Shown here one piece after another: positions 1,713 through 56,617 of a DNA stretch of 64,000 nt (position 1 is its first letter; every line of letters starts with the position of its first letter). Under the pieces are notes generated by a model that made no database searches, was not told where the DNA came from, and was given only the letters and a program-made list of their open reading frames with translations. The stretch is from NCBI GenBank assembly GCA_964610125.1, contig CAZSUV010000001.1:253240-317239 (forward strand), given 5' to 3'. Source of the stretch: an uncultured Candidatus Saccharibacteria bacterium (GTDB taxonomy: Bacteria; Patescibacteriota; Dojkabacteria; SC72). Position numbers and translations under genes: made by a program.

Positions 1713-3422
1713 TTATTCTACACATTCCATCTTGACTGTCTGACAACATTCCCCATTTTTGACATAGAATCCAGGGCCAGCAGCTCCGCCTGGACATTGG
1801 TCTTTCATAATTCCCATTTCGAAACAAGCTTCCATATCTTGGGCATGACAACTGTTATCGGCGGAACTAGAGGATGAACCCGAGCTACTTGAACCACTTG
1901 ATGAACTCCCACCGCTGTTAGATGGATTATATCTAGGTGTTTTAGTATTCTGTGAGTAATATGTCGTTTTTGTACATTTGTCTTTGCTTGAGCTATATAC
2001 ATATCCGTTTGGACAACACGAGTTTCCACCTATGTAGTACATACCTGTAGGACAAGTTATGGTAAGAGAATATGAAGATCGTCTTGCTTCTTCTCTTGCT
2101 TGCTCTTCTGCTTGTTCTTGTTTCTCTTGCGCAATTATTTCTTCTATCTGATTCTCAATATATTTCTTCCAAGTACTCTTGTAGTGCTTTACATATGCAG
2201 ATACCATATTGCTTGTAGATTTCCCATCTGTACCTGATATATTTAGTCCAATCTCTGATTTGTTAAGTGCAATTTGGCTAGATATGAAAACTGTATATAT
2301 GTTTGGTAGGTATCTAGAGAGAACATCGTCTTCAACATATCCTGCAGAAGAGATATGCTCTGTACCACTCAAAGTGCTTGGTTTCTGTGAGTCGGCAACT
2401 ATATATGTTTTGTTGCTCTCAAGCTTTCCTTTTTCATTTGTTCCTCTTACCCATACATCTCCTTCCCCTGCAATGAGTCTAAAAGCTCCTGTATCAAGGG
2501 ATCCTTTTCCTTCCTCATCTTTTGTTAAATCAAGAAATCTTTGCCCACCATCAAATGAGGTGTAGTATTCAGGGTGAAGTACCTGTTCTTCTGAAAGCTT
2601 TCCAGTTGTATCCCAGTGTTTTGATTCATTCCGTGCACTTGCAAATATTTCTGCTGGACCTGATGTTTTGAATATTCGGTCATTAACTTGTATAGAGAAG
2701 ATCTTCCCCTCTGGTTGTTTAATTATTCTAAAATATGCACCACCATCAAATAGCACTACTCTTGTTTCATTTTCAAATATATTTACCTGTATCTCCGGTA
2801 TCACGGCGTAGTATTTGTCAGACATTGATGTTACCGTTATGAGTGACCCGTCGGGGAGTTCAACATAGGAGTTAAGGCTCGAGTATATCTCTCCCGCCTC
2901 CTGTGCTGCAATATTTTCATATGGGGTATTAAATTGCACTTTACAGTGATTTCCAACTTCAACAGGTTCTTCACTAAGTGGTGTAGTTGTGTATTGAGAT
3001 GCTAGATCTTCTTCATCTGGTAATTCTACTATAATGACACCTCCCTCTGTTTTTGGTTCTATTTCATTTTCACCGCAATCAATATACACACTTGTAGTTC
3101 TTTCTTCAGATCGAAGAGGTGATTTTGTTGAATCCACAAATCCAAATTTAGTATATCCAGTTTCTCCATATATTTTGTATTTTGGTTCTTGGTCTCCAAA
3201 ATCTTGGGATGCAAAGTTTAGATCCATATATTCTTTTGAATCTTGAGCATATCCTTCTGGAGATACATAGTCATATTTCCTCTCATTAGAAGATGTTTTG
3301 TCCTTGTTAAGAAGGTATATGGTCAATGCTATGCCAAGGAGAATGATGACACCGAGAGGAATGCAAATATAAAGGATTTGCTTCTTAGATAGAGTTATCT
3401 TTGGAAAAATTAATTTCTTCAT
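1713..3422 (-). CDS. Signal-anchored extracellular protein with C-terminal Cys-rich repeats (paralog A)
   Basis: 569 aa. N-terminal MKKLIFPKITLSKKQIL plus a TM segment. Coiled/charged stretch EQAEEQAREEARR. Two CPTG..Y.G..CC-type Cys modules separated by an SSSSGSSSSGSSSSS linker. Homologous along its length to 4708..6234. Confidence 0.65.
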   Translation of the reverse strand: MKKLIFPKITLSKKQILYICIPLGVIILLGIALTIYLLNKDKTSSNERKYDYVSPEGYAQDSKEYMDLNFASQDFGDQEPKYKIYGETGYTKFGFVDSTKSPLRSEERTTSVYIDCGENEIEPKTEGGVIIVELPDEEDLASQYTTTPLSEEPVEVGNHCKVQFNTPYENIAAQEAGEIYSSLNSYVELPDGSLITVTSMSDKYYAVIPEIQVNIFENETRVVLFDGGAYFRIIKQPEGKIFSIQVNDRIFKTSGPAEIFASARNESKHWDTTGKLSEEQVLHPEYYTSFDGGQRFLDLTKDEEGKGSLDTGAFRLIAGEGDVWVRGTNEKGKLESNKTYIVADSQKPSTLSGTEHISSAGYVEDDVLSRYLPNIYTVFISSQIALNKSEIGLNISGTDGKSTSNMVSAYVKHYKSTWKKYIENQIEEIIAQEKQEQAEEQAREEARRSSYSLTITCPTGMYYIGGNSCCPNGYVYSSSKDKCTKTTYYSQNTKTPRYNPSNSGGSSSSGSSSSGSSSSSADNSCHAQDMEACFEMGIMKDQCPGGAAGPGFYVKNGECCQTVKMECVE

Positions 3423-3501
3423 CTTAATATGAATGAGATTATTTACTACTGTATCAATTGGAGAGAATTATGTCAAAGTGAAGTCGCAGAAGGGGGATAA
3501 T

Positions 3502-3743: not shown

Positions 3744-4619
3744 ATGGTAAAAAGAATAGATTCCAAATCTGCATTAAACAAACTCAACTCGAAATATCTT
3801 CCATATAATTGGGATTTAAATATCTTTAGAGGTTGTAGTCATCACTGTCAGTACTGCTATGCACAATATTCACACAGATATCTTGAGGACGGAGATTTCT
3901 TTGGCGAAATATATGTAAAAGACAATATACCAGAATTACTTGAGAAGAAATTAGCTTCAAAAAGATGGAAAGGGGAGATTATTAATTTAGGAGGTGTCAC
4001 AGACAGTTACCAGATACTTGAGAAAGATGAAAAAATAATGCCAGAGATTCTTAAAATATTAATCAAATACAAGAATCCAGTTACAATATCCACAAAGTCG
4101 AAATTAATTCTGAGAGATATTGAACTGTGGAATGAACTCTCAAAAGTTGCATCTGTAAGTTTGGCAGTTTCTCTTACAACCTTTGATTCAAATATATATC
4201 CTAAGACGGAGCCTGGTGCTTCAAAACCTGTTGAGAGATTGGAGGTATTGAAAGAGTTTAGAAAAACAAATGTTAACTTAGGTGTTTTAGCGATGCCTTT
4301 TTTACCTTTATTAACTGATACGGAGGAAAATATTGATGATTTGTTTAGTCATATATCATCAGTGCCAGTAGATTATGTTTTGTGTCAGATATTAAATCTG
4401 AGGGGTGTTACTAAGAGTCATTTTCTTGGCTTTATTGAGAGGGAGTTCCCAGAGTATTTAAAAAGATATTTAGAGTTGTATAAAAGTGGATTTGTTAGTC
4501 GGGAGTATAGAGAGATCTTCTATAATAGGGTAAGTAAGTATAAAGGAAAATATAATATACAGAACAATTATGAAATAAAGAATAGAGAGAGTGAGCAATT
4601 GACAATGGGAAATTTTTAA
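3744..4619 (+). CDS. Radical SAM protein, SplB/COG1533-like (DNA repair photolyase family)
   Basis: 291 aa; Cx3Cx2C cluster motif GCSHHCQYCYA characteristic of COG1533 radical SAM enzymes. Confidence 0.65.
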   Translation: MVKRIDSKSALNKLNSKYLPYNWDLNIFRGCSHHCQYCYAQYSHRYLEDGDFFGEIYVKDNIPELLEKKLASKRWKGEIINLGGVTDSYQILEKDEKIMPEILKILIKYKNPVTISTKSKLILRDIELWNELSKVASVSLAVSLTTFDSNIYPKTEPGASKPVERLEVLKEFRKTNVNLGVLAMPFLPLLTDTEENIDDLFSHISSVPVDYVLCQILNLRGVTKSHFLGFIEREFPEYLKRYLELYKSGFVSREYREIFYNRVSKYKGKYNIQNNYEIKNRESEQLTMGNF

Positions 4620-4707: not shown

Positions 4708-6234
4708 TTATTTTATTGGTTCAAGTGTTGGAGCATCTACATCAGGCATACAACATTTGTTTCCACTTAGTGTGTATTTCCCATTATTTGTTACTCCCTC
4801 TGCAGCCATCTTACAAGCCTGGTATGCCACTGTTCCAGAGCTAACACAATTGCTACCACTGCTTCCTGATGATGAAGATACCGAAGGAGTGGACGGGTTA
4901 TACGTAGGTGTTGTCTGCCCATTTGTATGTACATATGTATGACAATATCCATCAGTTCCTAGGTATGTACCTGTCTTACAACACTTTCCATCTCCAGCAT
5001 ATGATGTCCCTGTAGGACATACAGAGTATGTTGTACCTTTTGATACGGAAGCCTTGGCCTCTGCAGCTGCTTTTGCTCTTAATTCTTCTCCCTTCTCTAC
5101 CAACCCATCGTACCATTTTTGATAGTTTTCATATGCTTTAGCATATGCCATTGTATTTCCAATCACCATTTCTTGCCTTAGCTCTTTCTCTGTTGCAATT
5201 CTTTCATCCACGTATGCTTCTAGATTATTTGCAACAGTATGATAGTTGCCAAATCCATATGTTGCCTTTGTACTTTCTACTTGTGCAGTAAGGAAGTCGG
5301 CGATATTGTCCATGTAGCCCCAAGTAATTTTGTCACCATTGCCCATAAATTCAAAAGTCTCTGTTTTTGTTGTACTATCATTACTGTAGAAGGTATGTAC
5401 TTTCCCAGCATTAGCTTCATCCCAATACCACGCCCATGATCCATTTTCTGTCCAGTGACCATAATTTGCATAATCCTTATTCGTCATCATTATGATGAGA
5501 TCTTGGGTTCGCAATTTTACTTCTGCAGAACCTTCATAGAGCTCCACATGTCCCCATATTCCATTTCCACTAAAGCTACTCGATACTCCAGCAAAGAACT
5601 CTGTACCTGTTACATACATAACTCTGTCTACCATTTGTACACTAAATTTATTTCCCTCCTGTGGCGCTACTCTGTAGTAAGCATATGCATTTAGTTGGAC
5701 GATTCTTGTCTCTTTTTCATACATATTTACCTGTATAGAGGGGGAGTCTTTCGTGGAAATTGTGATTAATGAGCCATCCGGAAGTACTAAATACACATTG
5801 TAGAAATATGTCTCTTGTAGAGAATCTGGGCCATCATATTCTGCGAAGGTTAGTAAACAATGATTACTTACTTGTACGGGTTCTCTTCCTACATAATATT
5901 GTGTTTCTTTTGCCTCTGTGCCATCTGAATATGTACAGCTTTCTACCATTTCTACCTCTGGATCCTTACTTATTATATCTGCATATACCAGATATTTTTT
6001 TTCTGTATCTGCAGGCGTATATGCTTGGAGTGGTATTTCTAAAACTTGTTCAGAATCATCTGCGTATTCTTGTTTTGTTTGATTTTCTTTTGTGTTCTCT
6101 CCTAGATTTATCTTTCCCATACCCTTTAATATGAAGAACGCTGTAACAAGGAGAGCTATAACGGCTAGGGGAATGCAAATGAGAAGGATTTGCTTTTTAG
6201 ATAGAGTTATCTTTGGGAAAATTAATTTCTTCAT
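4708..6234 (-). CDS. Signal-anchored extracellular protein with C-terminal Cys-rich repeats (paralog B)
   Basis: 508 aa. N-terminus identical to paralog A (MKKLIFPKITLSKKQIL). Conserved islands LPDGSLIT, ETR.V, QPEG.KFS.Q..DR. C-terminal CPTGTSYAGDGKCC and ACKMAA...GNKCC modules. Confidence 0.65.
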   Translation of the reverse strand: MKKLIFPKITLSKKQILLICIPLAVIALLVTAFFILKGMGKINLGENTKENQTKQEYADDSEQVLEIPLQAYTPADTEKKYLVYADIISKDPEVEMVESCTYSDGTEAKETQYYVGREPVQVSNHCLLTFAEYDGPDSLQETYFYNVYLVLPDGSLITISTKDSPSIQVNMYEKETRIVQLNAYAYYRVAPQEGNKFSVQMVDRVMYVTGTEFFAGVSSSFSGNGIWGHVELYEGSAEVKLRTQDLIIMMTNKDYANYGHWTENGSWAWYWDEANAGKVHTFYSNDSTTKTETFEFMGNGDKITWGYMDNIADFLTAQVESTKATYGFGNYHTVANNLEAYVDERIATEKELRQEMVIGNTMAYAKAYENYQKWYDGLVEKGEELRAKAAAEAKASVSKGTTYSVCPTGTSYAGDGKCCKTGTYLGTDGYCHTYVHTNGQTTPTYNPSTPSVSSSSGSSGSNCVSSGTVAYQACKMAAEGVTNNGKYTLSGNKCCMPDVDAPTLEPIK

Positions 6235-6368
6235 CTTAATATGAATGAGATTATTTACTACTGTATCAATTGGAGAGAATTATGTCAAAGTGAAATCGGA
6301 AATATGTAGATGGAGTAATATATTTGTATCAATTTTGTATAGATATAATTTTACTGTAATATATAAAT

Positions 6369-7358
6369 ATGGATAAGCAAAATTTCGTTAAAGGAGTTGA
6401 ACGTTTAATTAATCCAATCGATGTGGGATCACTACACTTCATACAGTCATTTAATAAACTACTCCCTAAACCAATTCAAGAAAAACTGGTTAAATCTTCT
6501 GGTAAATCAGCACCATATATGGGATTTGTAGTAGAACCATATGCCACTTTTCTTTGCTATGAAATCTTAGATATGGAGTGGGCTCAAAAACTTCTTCCTG
6601 AGGGTTTTCAATTGATTAAAACCAAAGTGTTTGATGATGATGAACCTAAGTATACTTGTATATTTGGTTGTTTTACTTCACATACCAGTGCATTCTGGGG
6701 TTCTCGTGTTGAATTCTATATCATTGCTGAGGATACTAAGACTGGATTATTAAGCTGGATAATTGTGGACTATGATTCTAATACCATCAGCTATGACAAG
6801 CGTGATGGCTTGAGAGATCCTAATGCTACCAAGGCGGTTGTTACTACAGATTGTGAAGGTAAAATCTATGTTGATATTCCCAAGAATGATGGAAAGAGAA
6901 AGTTGATTTTTGAATGTGATTTCGAAAGTGGAAAATTTGCATCTTTAGATCAGAGATTATGGTTAGAGGGAAATCTTTCGATAGGGTATGGAAGTGAATT
7001 TGATAGGAAGGATGCGAGTATTTTTTCTTTGAAATTTAATCCTTGTGAAGTAAGGAGAGGTGTTAATATTCCATTGGGAAATGTCCGATTGGAAGAGAAT
7101 AGCTGGTACAAAGGATTGTTTAAGACTGAGCCATACAGAGTGTTGTCTTTCCCATATGCTCAGCATTTTGTATCAGATAGTCCTGGGAGTTCTAGTAGCT
7201 TGAAGAATGAAAAGGAATTAGTAGATGCTGTAGAGAGTATTGATTTTGGAAAGATAAAGGTATTTTCTACTAAATCTTTTAAAACAATGTTTATGGTTGG
7301 GAGTTTAGTTAGTCTATTGATTACAACAACCTTGGTTCTATTACTGATTCTTACTTAA
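6369..7358 (+). CDS. Hypothetical protein with C-terminal TM anchor (tail-anchored)
   Basis: 329 aa; no recognised motif; C-terminal MFMVGSLVSLLITTTLVLLLILT. Confidence 0.45.
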   Translation: MDKQNFVKGVERLINPIDVGSLHFIQSFNKLLPKPIQEKLVKSSGKSAPYMGFVVEPYATFLCYEILDMEWAQKLLPEGFQLIKTKVFDDDEPKYTCIFGCFTSHTSAFWGSRVEFYIIAEDTKTGLLSWIIVDYDSNTISYDKRDGLRDPNATKAVVTTDCEGKIYVDIPKNDGKRKLIFECDFESGKFASLDQRLWLEGNLSIGYGSEFDRKDASIFSLKFNPCEVRRGVNIPLGNVRLEENSWYKGLFKTEPYRVLSFPYAQHFVSDSPGSSSSLKNEKELVDAVESIDFGKIKVFSTKSFKTMFMVGSLVSLLITTTLVLLLILT

Positions 7359-7370
7359 TGTATGAATAGT

Positions 7371-7550
7371 TTATTTGTTAAAACGTGCTATTAGCTTATT
7401 ATATTGCCCCTTGGTTAGAAAAATTCTATATACATTCTTGTCTGATGTTTCTCCTGTAAGTGTAGCTGTATTTGATATACCCCAATTAACTATTTTCATA
7501 TTAATTACATGGATGTCTATGAAGAAATACTCTTTGTTATTGTTTTTCAT
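7371..7550 (-). CDS. Conserved small protein (59 aa), copy 2
   Basis: Hand translation: MKNNNKEYFFIDIHVINMKIVNWGISNTATLTGETSDKNVYRIFLTKGQYNKLIARFNK*. Start overlaps the stop of the upstream DUF2726 gene by 14 nt. Confidence 0.4.
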   Translation of the reverse strand: MKNNNKEYFFIDIHVINMKIVNWGISNTATLTGETSDKNVYRIFLTKGQYNKLIARFNK

Positions 7551-8052
7551 ATTGGATTATTTGTTCTATTTTATTCCTAAGATTATCTATTTGATTAATT
7601 TCTATTAATGGAATTCTAAGTAAAGGAATATTTGCTTCCTTTAATATCTCTTCAACTATTCTATCTCTTTCAATTCGATCATTCCTTGAATGAGAAGAGT
7701 CATCTAATTCTATGACTAGTAATGGTGATATATTTGTTTTGTCACATATTACATAATCTACGGATTTTCTATCTATATGGCTCAATGCACCTTTCCAGCT
7801 CTGTCCAACAATCTCATGTTCTAAAAGTGATGAAATATGGATTTGTGGAAAAATGTAATAACGATTATCCAAGATGGTTTGTAAAATATTGAGAAAATCA
7901 TGCTCGGGTTTGGTGAGTAAGTATTCCTTTTTTTTGTAAGCGTAATTCTTTGTTCCATTTGCTTTTCTATTCTTATTTATAAAGTAGGAAAGTATAGCGA
8001 GAATGGAGAATATGGGAATAAGGATGAGGAGATACAAAATAGCGTTATTCAT
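7537..8052 (-). CDS. TM-anchored DUF2726 (NERD/restriction-endonuclease-like) domain protein
   Basis: 171 aa. N-terminal TM helix. Core VDYVICDKTNISPLLVIELDDSSHSRNDRIERDRIVEEILKEANIPLLRI fits the DUF2726 pattern (D-x-V-I-c...I-E-L-D...H). Confidence 0.5.
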   Translation of the reverse strand: MNNAILYLLILIPIFSILAILSYFINKNRKANGTKNYAYKKKEYLLTKPEHDFLNILQTILDNRYYIFPQIHISSLLEHEIVGQSWKGALSHIDRKSVDYVICDKTNISPLLVIELDDSSHSRNDRIERDRIVEEILKEANIPLLRIPLIEINQIDNLRNKIEQIIQYEKQ

Positions 8053-8136: not shown

Positions 8137-9258
8137 CTAATGCTTCATGCAATAATCTAATACTGGATCTTTTCCATTCATAATATCTTCTATCTTAGGT
8201 TCTATTAATATGTCCGGAAGTATATTATGCGAGTCATCATCTATCAATTTAAAATATTTTGATGAATATTGTATTTCAATCTTAGAATTAGGAAGAATTA
8301 ATTTTTTTATTTCTCCATAATGATTTACTCCTTGTCCTGTAGGCTGTCCTACTAAGATAGATTTTAACTTGTGCTTAATATCATATGTATTTAAAACTCC
8401 AGAAGAAAAGATTCTCCTATTAATTAAGCAATATATATGTGGGTTGCTAGCTCTTTTATAAGCTTTCAAAACAGATAATATGGGAGAGAAAAGAGAAGAA
8501 TCCCCTCCAGGGTTATTTCTTAGATCTAAGATTATCCTTTCAGGCTTATTCTTTAGGATAATTTTTATATCTTTTCTTAACTCCTTGATCGTGTATTCAG
8601 GATCCTCATGACATCGTGTGTACTTTAAGTACAGCGTAGTATCCTTCTCTTCTACGAAATAGTTATATTTCATATTTAAATACTTATTTCCTTCTATTCT
8701 ATAAATACTTGTTTGCTTTATAGGAGTATTTGAGTCAACCGCTTTAAGAGATATCGTTTTGTTATCTTCAAATGTGTACTTTATGTTATCTTCAGTATTT
8801 TGGGAAATGTATTCAATGATATATTCATCATTTAAAAATCTCGCTAATTCAGTTTTCTTATGCTCTTCATTATCAAAAACGATATATTTTTCCTCTTCTT
8901 TACAGAACTTTTTTATACTAATTCCATTAACTTTAATCAATTTCTTTCCTAAAGATTTCTCATAATCTTCTGGTATTATGAAAGGATAATAACCATCAGA
9001 TACCCATTCAAAATATATAGGGGCTCTTCGCCCATTTGTATATGTAGAAGTATGTGGGTCTTTGATTGCAGAGAGTATGGAGAGCAGGAGAAGATTAAAA
9101 TCTTCAGCTTTTAAGTCTTTGTCTTTTATCCTTTTAATTATAGATTCGCCAACGCTAAGAAACTTTTCTTTAGTTATCAAAGCGTATAGATTCTTATGTA
9201 GTAGAGGGAGATTTTGTACCAAATACTCTATATCTTCAATATATTTCTTCTTGTCCAT
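8137..9258 (-). CDS. S41-family peptidase (C-terminal processing peptidase-like)
   Basis: 373 aa; IILDLRNNPGGD motif typical of S41 peptidases; downstream Ser in RIFSSGV. Confidence 0.65.
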   Translation of the reverse strand: MDKKKYIEDIEYLVQNLPLLHKNLYALITKEKFLSVGESIIKRIKDKDLKAEDFNLLLLSILSAIKDPHTSTYTNGRRAPIYFEWVSDGYYPFIIPEDYEKSLGKKLIKVNGISIKKFCKEEEKYIVFDNEEHKKTELARFLNDEYIIEYISQNTEDNIKYTFEDNKTISLKAVDSNTPIKQTSIYRIEGNKYLNMKYNYFVEEKDTTLYLKYTRCHEDPEYTIKELRKDIKIILKNKPERIILDLRNNPGGDSSLFSPILSVLKAYKRASNPHIYCLINRRIFSSGVLNTYDIKHKLKSILVGQPTGQGVNHYGEIKKLILPNSKIEIQYSSKYFKLIDDDSHNILPDILIEPKIEDIMNGKDPVLDYCMKH

Positions 9259-55272: not shown

Positions 55273-55374
55273 ATTGTTGAATTGGAAATAATATATTATT
55301 TACCTTCCTATAGCATGATTATATCACTTGAACCTTTGCTTTATATACATTTGATTATATAATGCAATATGTTA

Positions 55375-55538
55375 CCTAAACCTATTTATTTAGGCATGGT
55401 GATGAAAATCAAATCCAGGTCAGTGCGTTAGGCGGTCTTCCGTCTTGCAATCACTGACCTGGTTACTAGGGGAAACTCTAGTAGGTGAAGTAGCAATACT
55501 CACCTGTGAGCGGGAGACCACTTGTCTCAAAGCTCACA
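55375..55538. other. Highly structured ~165-nt element: five consecutive hairpins (candidate ncRNA or 5'-UTR element)
   Basis: Hairpins: CCTAAA/TTTAGG; CCAGGTCAGTG...CACTGACCTGG (11 bp, inner GGCGG-tctt-CCGTC); TACTAG/CTAGTA; GGTGA/TCACC; TGTGAGC...GCTCACA (inner GAGAC/GTCTC). Confidence 0.3.
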
Positions 55539-55573: not shown

Positions 55574-56617
55574 ATGAAAAAGAAAACGAGTGTGAAGAAA
55601 AGTCGCCTATTTCTAAGATATTTAGCTTCTCCGCTTTATTTAATGATCCCTTCTACCATAAGGATCATCATCCTCTTTCTAGGAATAGAAGCCTACGATC
55701 TAATCGCAAGAATAGATTTCAAGGTTATTGTAATCCTGATATTGCTTGGTGTTGTTTCAATTCCATTAACATTTTACATACTGTACGGAATTGGTGCGGG
55801 GTTATTTTATTTAGGGAAAAAGATAATGCAGTTTTCTCCAAATAAGATAGTATTTTGGATTGTATTTTCTCTTTGTGGAATTAGCTTCTTAGATATGTTT
55901 ATTAAAACTAATGCTAATTTAGATCCTGAAACTGCTGTAGTTCCACTAGTTGTAGATATAATAGTTACAATTCTAATTATGACTGTATATGGAATAGGTG
56001 GATATGTCCGAAGCAAAGAGGAGGAAGAGATGGCTATGCAAACAGCTTCAAAACTTGCAGATGAATCAGTGGATAGTGGACTTCCAATTGATATGGGACA
56101 AATTGCCATAGGAGAGGACAAGGAGATTCAAGAAACACTTGAAAACATTGAAAGATTAAAGGAAAGTTCACACTATCCTTTTGTACACCATATTCTTAGA
56201 GACTTAGCATTAAAAGACCCAGGTGTTTTTTCTAAAATGGTTGTTGAAGCACATAAATCTTCTAAAGATAATGCATTTATAGAGCTATGGGAAAGGGTAG
56301 GTGGGTCAGCAGATGAATTAGAAAAGGATTCTCTTGTACCAAGATTTTTACAGCTAAGAAATAAAGAAGTGTTGATTGCAATGAAGATGCCCAAAGTAAA
56401 GAATCAAAACGAAGCCTCATTTATAGGTGTGAACTTACAAACCAAAAGAACACTAAGTTTTTATACACTTGAGCTTACAAAGAAAAAGAAATATGCATTA
56501 TGTAAATGGGAATATCCTTCATTGTTTAGTGATGCTGAGCATTCTTATTTGAAAGACGGACTTGAATCAAATTTAGAATCTTTCCATTGGGCTATAGCGG
56601 ATCTAGAGAATAATTAG
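55574..56617 (+). CDS. Membrane protein (4 TM) with ~200-aa cytoplasmic domain, hypothetical
   Basis: 347 aa; ATG at 55574 preferred over the overlapping track ORF 55522. Confidence 0.5.
   Translation: MKKKTSVKKSRLFLRYLASPLYLMIPSTIRIIILFLGIEAYDLIARIDFKVIVILILLGVVSIPLTFYILYGIGAGLFYLGKKIMQFSPNKIVFWIVFSLCGISFLDMFIKTNANLDPETAVVPLVVDIIVTILIMTVYGIGGYVRSKEEEEMAMQTASKLADESVDSGLPIDMGQIAIGEDKEIQETLENIERLKESSHYPFVHHILRDLALKDPGVFSKMVVEAHKSSKDNAFIELWERVGGSADELEKDSLVPRFLQLRNKEVLIAMKMPKVKNQNEASFIGVNLQTKRTLSFYTLELTKKKKYALCKWEYPSLFSDAEHSYLKDGLESNLESFHWAIADLENN

Follow-up and report, generated by a model that had tools for sequence, protein, structure and literature searches.

The 64,000-nucleotide stretch of contig CAZSUV010000001.1 analysed here (positions 253,240 to 317,239 of the forward strand; hereinafter, the window) comes from an uncultured bacterium labelled Candidatus Saccharibacteria and placed among the Dojkabacteria in the GTDB lineage. 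Two genes on the minus strand of the window encode large proteins, denoted paralogs A and B, that carry cysteine-rich modules at their C-termini. We propose that A and B are membrane-anchored surface proteins that display these modules, in the form of disulfide-stapled hairpins, as a contact or binding tip, a reading to which we assign a probability of roughly one half. The two Cys-rich modules and the Ser/Gly linker between them had been described for both paralogs in an earlier note made from the sequence alone, and all the peptides quoted there were found in place.

Architecture and conservation of proteins A and B

Paralog A (1713..3422, minus strand; 569 aa in the list of open reading frames (ORFs), with a 100% match to protein P0001) and paralog B (4708..6234, minus strand; 508 aa) have the same architecture and share 29% amino acid identity (BLASTP E 9e-35), a similarity on which we regard them as true paralogs. 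Module 1 of A, CPTGMYYIGGNSCCPNGYVYSSSKDKC (aa 457-483, 1974..2054; these and all other features of A and B given below are on the minus strand), is a double CPxG hairpin with the cysteines C457, C469, C470, and C483, and module 1 of B, CPTGTSYAGDGKCCKTGTYLGTDGYC (aa 406-431, 4942..5019), is likewise a double CPxG hairpin (C406, C418, C419, and C431). The module 1 pattern is C-x11-CC-x12-C, with CPxG and an aromatic residue opening each half. Module 2 of A, CHAQDMEACFEMGIMKDQCPGGAAGPGFYVKNGECCQTVKMEC (aa 525-567, 1722..1850), contains six cysteines (C525, C533, C543, C559, C560, and C567) around a CPGG...CC...C hairpin core, and module 2 of B, CVSSGTVAYQACKMAAEGVTNNGKYTLSGNKCC (aa 463-495, 4750..4848), contains four (C463, C474, C494, and C495) and precedes a Pro-rich tail of 13 aa. 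Within the family, the A types have six cysteines in module 2, and the B and C types have four (C..C..CC). With Cys accounting for 0.92% of the residues in the long ORFs of the window, the chance of finding at least 10 cysteines in 113 aa is 1.2e-7 (binomial).

The claim that the modules are repeats of each other stands for a CPxG...Y..G.CC hairpin core that is common to both but fails for the modules as wholes, module 2 being no plain repeat of module 1. Only this core was aligned between the two (hhalign probability 60%, E 9e-5, 11 columns), and weak second-domain matches of hidden Markov models (HMMs) also relate module 2 to module 1. An HMM constructed from the 14-residue hairpin repeats that occur in unrelated proteins, with the consensus CPSGYSYNSSTDKC, aligns over its full length with residues 470-483 of A (CPNGYVYSSSKDKC), the second half of module 1, with 17.3 bits and an E-value of 6e-5 in a search of all window ORFs. 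Two AlphaFold2 (AF2) models were examined, one of full-length A (mean predicted local distance difference test score, pLDDT, of 56.9; 70-85 in the beta core) and one restricted to the last 125 aa (mean pLDDT 50.9); in the modules, the pLDDT is 50-68, which is low confidence. Both contain two beta-hairpins in module 1 followed by a disordered linker, and both place strands in module 2. Given the two hairpins predicted for module 1 and the HMM match of its second half, the most satisfactory explanation of the CC doublet is that two Cys-bounded CPxG hairpins (C-x11-C followed by C-x12-C) adjoin each other there; the doublet would then not be the hallmark of a knot. The small disulfide knot suggested in the earlier note thus gives way to a simpler arrangement, with the CC doublet at the boundary between two hairpins.

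The rest of the protein agrees with the surface location that had been proposed. In A, a 12-aa Lys-rich cytoplasmic tail precedes a single transmembrane (TM) helix, KKQILYICIPLGVIILLGIALTIYLLNK (aa 13-40, 3303..3386; a helix in the AF2 model), in which K13 and K14 are invariant. The helix leads to a beta-rich ectodomain (aa 81-363, 2334..3182) for which the FecR periplasmic fold was recovered, with similarity to the FecR/PupR periplasmic domain (PF04773; PDB 6ovm, 4m0h), and which contains the conserved pair C116/C160. A type II topology (N-in, C-out), with a single pass through the membrane of a Candidatus Dojkabacteria cell, is the best explanation for these features of A and B, and because of this topology the modules would be extracellular, at the membrane-distal end of the protein. 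Between the ectodomain and module 1, the earlier note had described a coiled, charged stalk; a long charged helix (...EKQEQAEEQAREEARR; aa 401-450, 2073..2222) is indeed predicted, with low confidence (pLDDT 32-69), but a coiled coil was not borne out. Directly after module 1, a conserved TPxYxPS motif opens the linker, which in A is a disordered Ser/Gly segment (aa 484-524, 1851..1973; defined from alignments, pLDDT about 27-28) and in B consists of TPTYNPS and Ser/Gly residues (4849..4941, from the alignment).

The FecR-like body invites the question of whether A and B are FecR-type anti-sigma regulators, and this was ruled out because the cytoplasmic part, a 12-aa tail compared with a sigma-binding domain of about 80 aa, is far too short. 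The scan of neighbouring ORFs yielded no sigma factor and no TonB-dependent transducer or receptor, and known FecR proteins lack the C-terminal helix and the Cys modules of A and B.

The family to which A and B belong is small. A search of 5.8 billion proteins retrieved only 15 relatives, and a scan of 185,579 species genomes identified 11 loci with family members; a third homologue search, using a broad family alignment, added no further members. The A orthologues (56-77% identity) were found in metagenome-assembled genomes (MAGs) of Candidatus Dojkabacteria, and the B orthologues (78-89% identity) in loci L003, L006-L008, and L010. Most of the locus records are labelled Candidatus Dojkabacteria and the rest Candidatus Saccharibacteria, Muribaculaceae, or 'uncultured bacterium', a mixture in which we suspect loose binning of Patescibacteria MAGs. 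Several of these loci come from anaerobic reactor MAGs (record titles with AnMBR). Two contigs labelled 'uncultured Muribaculaceae', CAZKSN010000003.1 (L004) and CAYRHA010000010.1 (L005), encode clear family members with tandem module 1, and these bins are likely mis-assigned or contaminated.

All 10 module cysteines are retained in 10 A-type orthologues (56-77% identity) and all 8 in the B-type orthologues, in addition to which the remaining ectodomain of about 400 aa has only a single conserved Cys pair (the C116/C160 of A). The total number of extracellular cysteines is even (6, 10, 12, 14, or 18) in all but one of the 25 complete members. Among the A-type orthologues, module 1 is the best-conserved segment, with a mean pairwise identity of 83% vs 66% overall (80% when the cysteines are left out), and the Ser/Gly linker is the least conserved one (40% identity). 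These values point to purifying selection acting on module 1.

The number of module 1 copies varies: there is none in L009, L011, and P0015, one in the A and B types, and two in tandem in L004/P0021, L005, P0022, and P0030. The very C-terminal end of the protein is in all cases occupied by module 2. Judging from the occurrence of zero, one, or two tandem copies and from the recurrence of the same sequence pattern in other secreted proteins (see below), the module appears to behave as a unit. In a scan of the window plus related loci amounting to about 110 kb, no protein outside the A/B family was found to carry the module.

The double hairpin in other proteins

That the modules match no named domain, as the earlier note had stated, was corroborated by profile searches. 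The closest Pfam family is CC (PF04942), a short four-Cys domain that contains a CC doublet and is known from nematode proteins. It matches A with 14.1 bits (E 0.052), compared with a gathering cutoff of 20.6 bits, and does not match B; sub-threshold matches were obtained for 8 of the 16 family members searched (best E 0.0055). The alignment is limited to positions 19-34 of the 34 in the profile (CPTGMYYIGGNSCCPN), with four Cys and the CC doublet present, the doublet being central in our proteins and terminal in the model. The likeness consists in a short four-Cys module with the CPxG...G.CC signature, and the difference in the host protein, a Patescibacteria membrane protein in our case vs a nematode protein. 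The modules had no match in NCBIfam, and PDB sequence searches with three profiles (full-length, module, and broad-module) gave no significant match to them. For the first hairpin, the best PDB match was with a CPxG hairpin in an EGF domain of LRP6 (CPTGVKLLENGKTC) and was non-significant (E 0.39), and a Foldseek comparison of the low-confidence C-terminal model with the PDB returned only noise (E>3). The similarity to the C-terminal hairpin of EGF (CxCPxGxxLxxxGKxC in LRP6) is that of a Cys-bounded CPxG hairpin; A and B lack the six-Cys EGF pattern and the preceding CxC, and EGF had no Pfam match. No CBM_14 (PF01607) match was obtained at E<=1 in the 16 family members, in which the corresponding six-Cys pattern is also absent, nor was there a Pfam match to TraN (PF06986) in the family. 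The four or six cysteines of the modules are spaced differently from those of CBM14, with which only the single hairpin CPxGYxY..C is held in common, and on the TraN side the likeness is limited to the hairpin repeat of the TraN-like proteins P0018 and P0027. Accordingly, neither of the two findings that the earlier note had named as fatal to its proposal, a match to an established domain at threshold or cysteines not conserved among the orthologues, was obtained.

The modules are not peculiar to A and B, since the same double hairpin is found in unrelated secreted proteins of eukaryotes and bacteria. In an exhaustive search of 1.84 billion representative proteins, the module 1 profile had 26 matches at E<=1e-3, including the family members P0002, P0021, P0022, P0026, P0030, and P0031. 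A C-type lectin protein of Steinernema carpocapsae, P0017, contains the same C...CC...C double hairpin in several copies (E 2e-14), and so does P0039, which is similar to P0017; further double hairpins were found in chytrid P0033, in P0040 of the ichthyosporean Abeoforma, in the marine transcript P0028, and in small or basic proteins of unknown bacteria (P0019, P0023, P0036, P0038, and P0041). The architecture of these non-family proteins differs from that of A and B. Two of them, P0019 and P0023, matched module profile A5 with E-values of 8e-10 and 1.3e-6, respectively, and barely pass the CC cutoff (20.9 and 22.0 bits); the other double-hairpin matches are mostly devoid of Pfam annotation over the module. 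Long arrays of single hairpins were found in the TraN-like proteins P0018 and P0027, and the hairpin repeats of P0024, P0025, P0028, and P0029 were scored by Pfam as partial CBM_14.

Because the profile search recovers unrelated proteins with double and single hairpins, the modules are no unique invention but an unnamed form of the simple, Cys-bounded CPxG hairpin, a motif class that is widespread. The scattered double hairpins may be homologous or convergent, the sequences being too short to decide. The class includes the TraN-like or CBM14-like repeat (CPxG[YF]x[YF][ND]x5C), the consensus of which is fitted by CPNGYVYSSSKDKC of A, and which, like the modules of A and B, occurs in Cys-rich extracellular proteins. 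TraN is a Cys-rich surface protein in which all cysteines are predicted to form intramolecular disulfides and the tip of which binds the partner cell (PMC9246713). In contrast to TraN-like and CBM14-like proteins, A and B fuse two hairpins through the CC junction, with neither long arrays nor the six-Cys CBM14 fold; unlike TraN, which is located in the outer membrane, they belong to a monoderm-type cell and have a TM helix at the N-terminus as their anchor. The analogy between TraN and the tip of A and B, which we count in favour of a binding tip, is one of resemblance only.

Mosaic structure of the paralogs

Although A and B share 29% identity overall, their 5' ends are nearly the same. The 62 nt upstream of the two start codons are 100% identical and contain a promoter-like TTGACA-17-TACAGT sequence with a TG, present once upstream of A (3423..3486, minus strand) and in a second copy upstream of B (6235..6298, minus strand). 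A direct repeat of 170 nt with 88% identity spans both 5' ends (3317-3486 and 6129-6298, minus strand). Within the coding sequences, the first 55 or so nucleotides of A and B have two differences, and the first 17 residues are identical. Elsewhere, the N-terminus of A-type orthologues is different, and A has thus apparently taken over a B-type 5' end; the pattern points to a gene conversion in which B donated the promoter and 5' end to A, or else to strict co-regulation.

The opposite end of A is also foreign to its closest relatives. Module 2 of A shares about 91% identity with its counterpart in P0022, which represents a different paralog type and is only 33% identical to A overall, and does not resemble module 2 of the nearest orthologues of A. 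This distribution of identities indicates that the C-terminal tip was swapped between paralogs by recombination. Taken together, the 5' identity and the module 2 likeness to P0022 argue for an exchange of gene ends between paralogs.

A short region upstream of the start codon (3423-3467 and 6235-6279 in the window) is conserved across species, in the B- and C-type genes of L006-L011. It can be read in frame (..IDTVVNNLIH.K), but a stop codon precedes it and none of the start codons ATG, GTG, and TTG occurs in it. On this evidence, the region is probably a promoter or an element of the 5' untranslated region, without an obvious Shine-Dalgarno sequence.

The broadest interpretation of these data joins two propositions, namely, that the pattern C-P-x-G-x-[YF]-x5-9-C-C-P-x-G-[YFW]-x-[YF]-x5-7-C defines a genuine, unnamed mini-domain found across kingdoms, and that in Dojkabacteria this mini-domain serves as a host-recognition tip that was duplicated, lost, and swapped by recombination. 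We consider this conjunction speculative and rather unlikely to hold in full.

Competing explanations, locus context, and biological meaning

In the model that we favour, the Lys-rich tail of 12 residues and the TM helix would hold the protein in the membrane, from which the chain would run outward through the FecR/PupR-like beta domain, the charged helix of about 50 residues, module 1, TPxYxPS with the flexible Ser/Gly tether, and, finally, module 2. The module cysteines most likely pair in intramolecular disulfides, which would rigidify the Gly/Tyr-rich mini-domains; these would serve as a membrane-distal contact surface and probably bind a glycan or a surface protein of a host bacterium on the partner cell. 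The binding role is suggested by the position of the modules and by their conservation.

Several observations weigh against this model. The modules were predicted with a pLDDT of only 50-68, so that the disulfide pairing rests on Cys parity and conservation, and the predicted strand register places the bounding cysteines not directly opposite each other, such that the connectivity could be 1-2/3-4 or 1-3/2-4. The relatives come largely from anaerobic reactor MAGs, where extracellular disulfides are less obviously stable, and no Dsb or VKOR gene was detected in the roughly 20-28 annotated ORFs of the window, which covers 64 kb of the genome. Across the 11 loci, no ligand, partner gene, or conserved neighbourhood pointing to a function was found, and a structural role, or one in assembly, would account equally well for how strongly module 1 is conserved.

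The last point leads to the rival that survives best, in which the modules are assembly or anchoring elements that form intermolecular disulfides, mediate oligomerisation, or tie the distal end of the protein to an S-layer, the cell wall, or a pilus, and do not bind a foreign ligand. The strong conservation of module 1, with few variable positions, a possible oligomerisation through the long helix, and the invariably C-terminal location of module 2 would all be in line with such a role. We nevertheless regard it as unlikely, given that the even number of cysteines in every module suggests self-contained pairing, that zero to two copies of module 1 and the swapping of module 2 fit an exchangeable tip better than a fixed interface, and that no conserved partner gene lies nearby.

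Less probable still is true homology of the modules to the nematode CC domain (PF04942) or to the CBM14 peritrophin-A domain, which would imply binding of chitin-like glycans or of glycans containing N-acetylglucosamine. Sub-threshold CC matches in half of the 16 members, the retrieval by the module profile of P0019 and P0023, which exceed the CC cutoff, and of proteins with partial CBM_14 repeats, and the resemblance of the conserved Tyr and Gly to those of carbohydrate-binding hairpins are arguments in its favour. They are offset by the scores (14.1 bits for A and none for B vs 20.6) and by an alignment confined to positions 19-34 of the 34-position profile, as well as by the lack of any CBM_14 match in the family at E<=1 and of the six-Cys CBM14 pattern; moreover, short Cys hairpins can easily arise by convergence.

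We also deem it improbable, and more so than homology to CC or CBM14, that the module cysteines coordinate a metal (Zn, Fe, or an Fe-S cluster), either as metal-stabilised knuckles or in a redox or metal sensor at the cell surface. Each module does offer four or six conserved cysteines, thiols stay reduced in anaerobic bioreactors such as those from which the relatives were assembled, and no disulfide oxidoreductase is encoded in the annotated part of the window. However, Zn and Fe-S sites typically have CxxC or CxxH knuckles, which are missing from C-x11-CC-x12-C, adjacent Cys residues seldom ligate one ion, there are no conserved His or Asp co-ligands, and the nearest sequence relatives, namely, the CC, CBM14-like, and TraN-like secreted repeats, are proteins of the disulfide type.

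Finally, the location of a radical S-adenosylmethionine (SAM) gene between the two paralog genes, together with the Cys-rich C-termini typical of SCIFF and ranthipeptide precursors, might suggest that the C-termini of A and B undergo thioether or sactionine-type modification in the manner of ribosomally synthesized and post-translationally modified peptides, but this very improbable link was rejected because the enzyme is of the Rv2578c/PA0069 type with no SPASM or twitch domain detected, its gene is on the opposite strand, and no radical SAM homologue adjoins the family members in 11 other loci; in addition, the supposed substrates are membrane proteins of 500 aa whose Cys region is extracellular.

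The radical SAM gene occupies 3744-4619 on the plus strand, and its product is similar to Rv2578c and PA0069 (232 and 189 bits, neither of which reaches the equivalog cutoff). Downstream of A, the minus strand encodes a 171-aa multi-TM protein (1169-1684), a homologue of which (60% identity) is encoded in L001 at a distance of about 6 kb from the A-type gene, and, divergently from B, the plus strand encodes a protein of 329 aa that has a TM helix at its C-terminus (6369-7358); neither has a Pfam or NCBIfam match. Genes for a nuclease-like DUF2726 protein (7537-8052, minus strand) and an S41 peptidase-like protein (8137-9258, minus strand) adjoin the locus, and DUF2726 homologues are also located beside family members in L002 and L004. 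The rest of the window is ordinary chromosome, encoding enolase, RecA, RecX, RecJ, TsaD, GluRS, a GGDEF protein, and tRNAs. A LOOT RNA (Rfam RF03000; 59 bits vs the gathering threshold of 46.4) was identified in an intergenic region at 55373-55504 on the plus strand, upstream of ORF 55574-56617.

The double CPxG hairpin has neither a dedicated Pfam model nor a match among solved structures, and for want of a dedicated profile it goes unannotated in many secreted proteins. The gap in annotation is small, and as the motif is a simple one of a kind already familiar, the conceptual advance is limited. For the Dojkabacteria, our analysis defines a narrow, lineage-restricted family of membrane-anchored proteins, on which searches of the literature for Cys-rich proteins of Dojkabacteria, for PF04942, and for surface proteins of Patescibacteria turned up nothing. 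A life attached to other microbes is presumed for the Patescibacteria, and, with the exception of type IV pili, the molecules through which they make contact are, to our knowledge, largely unknown. The A/B family provides concrete candidates for studies of attachment or recognition in Dojkabacteria.

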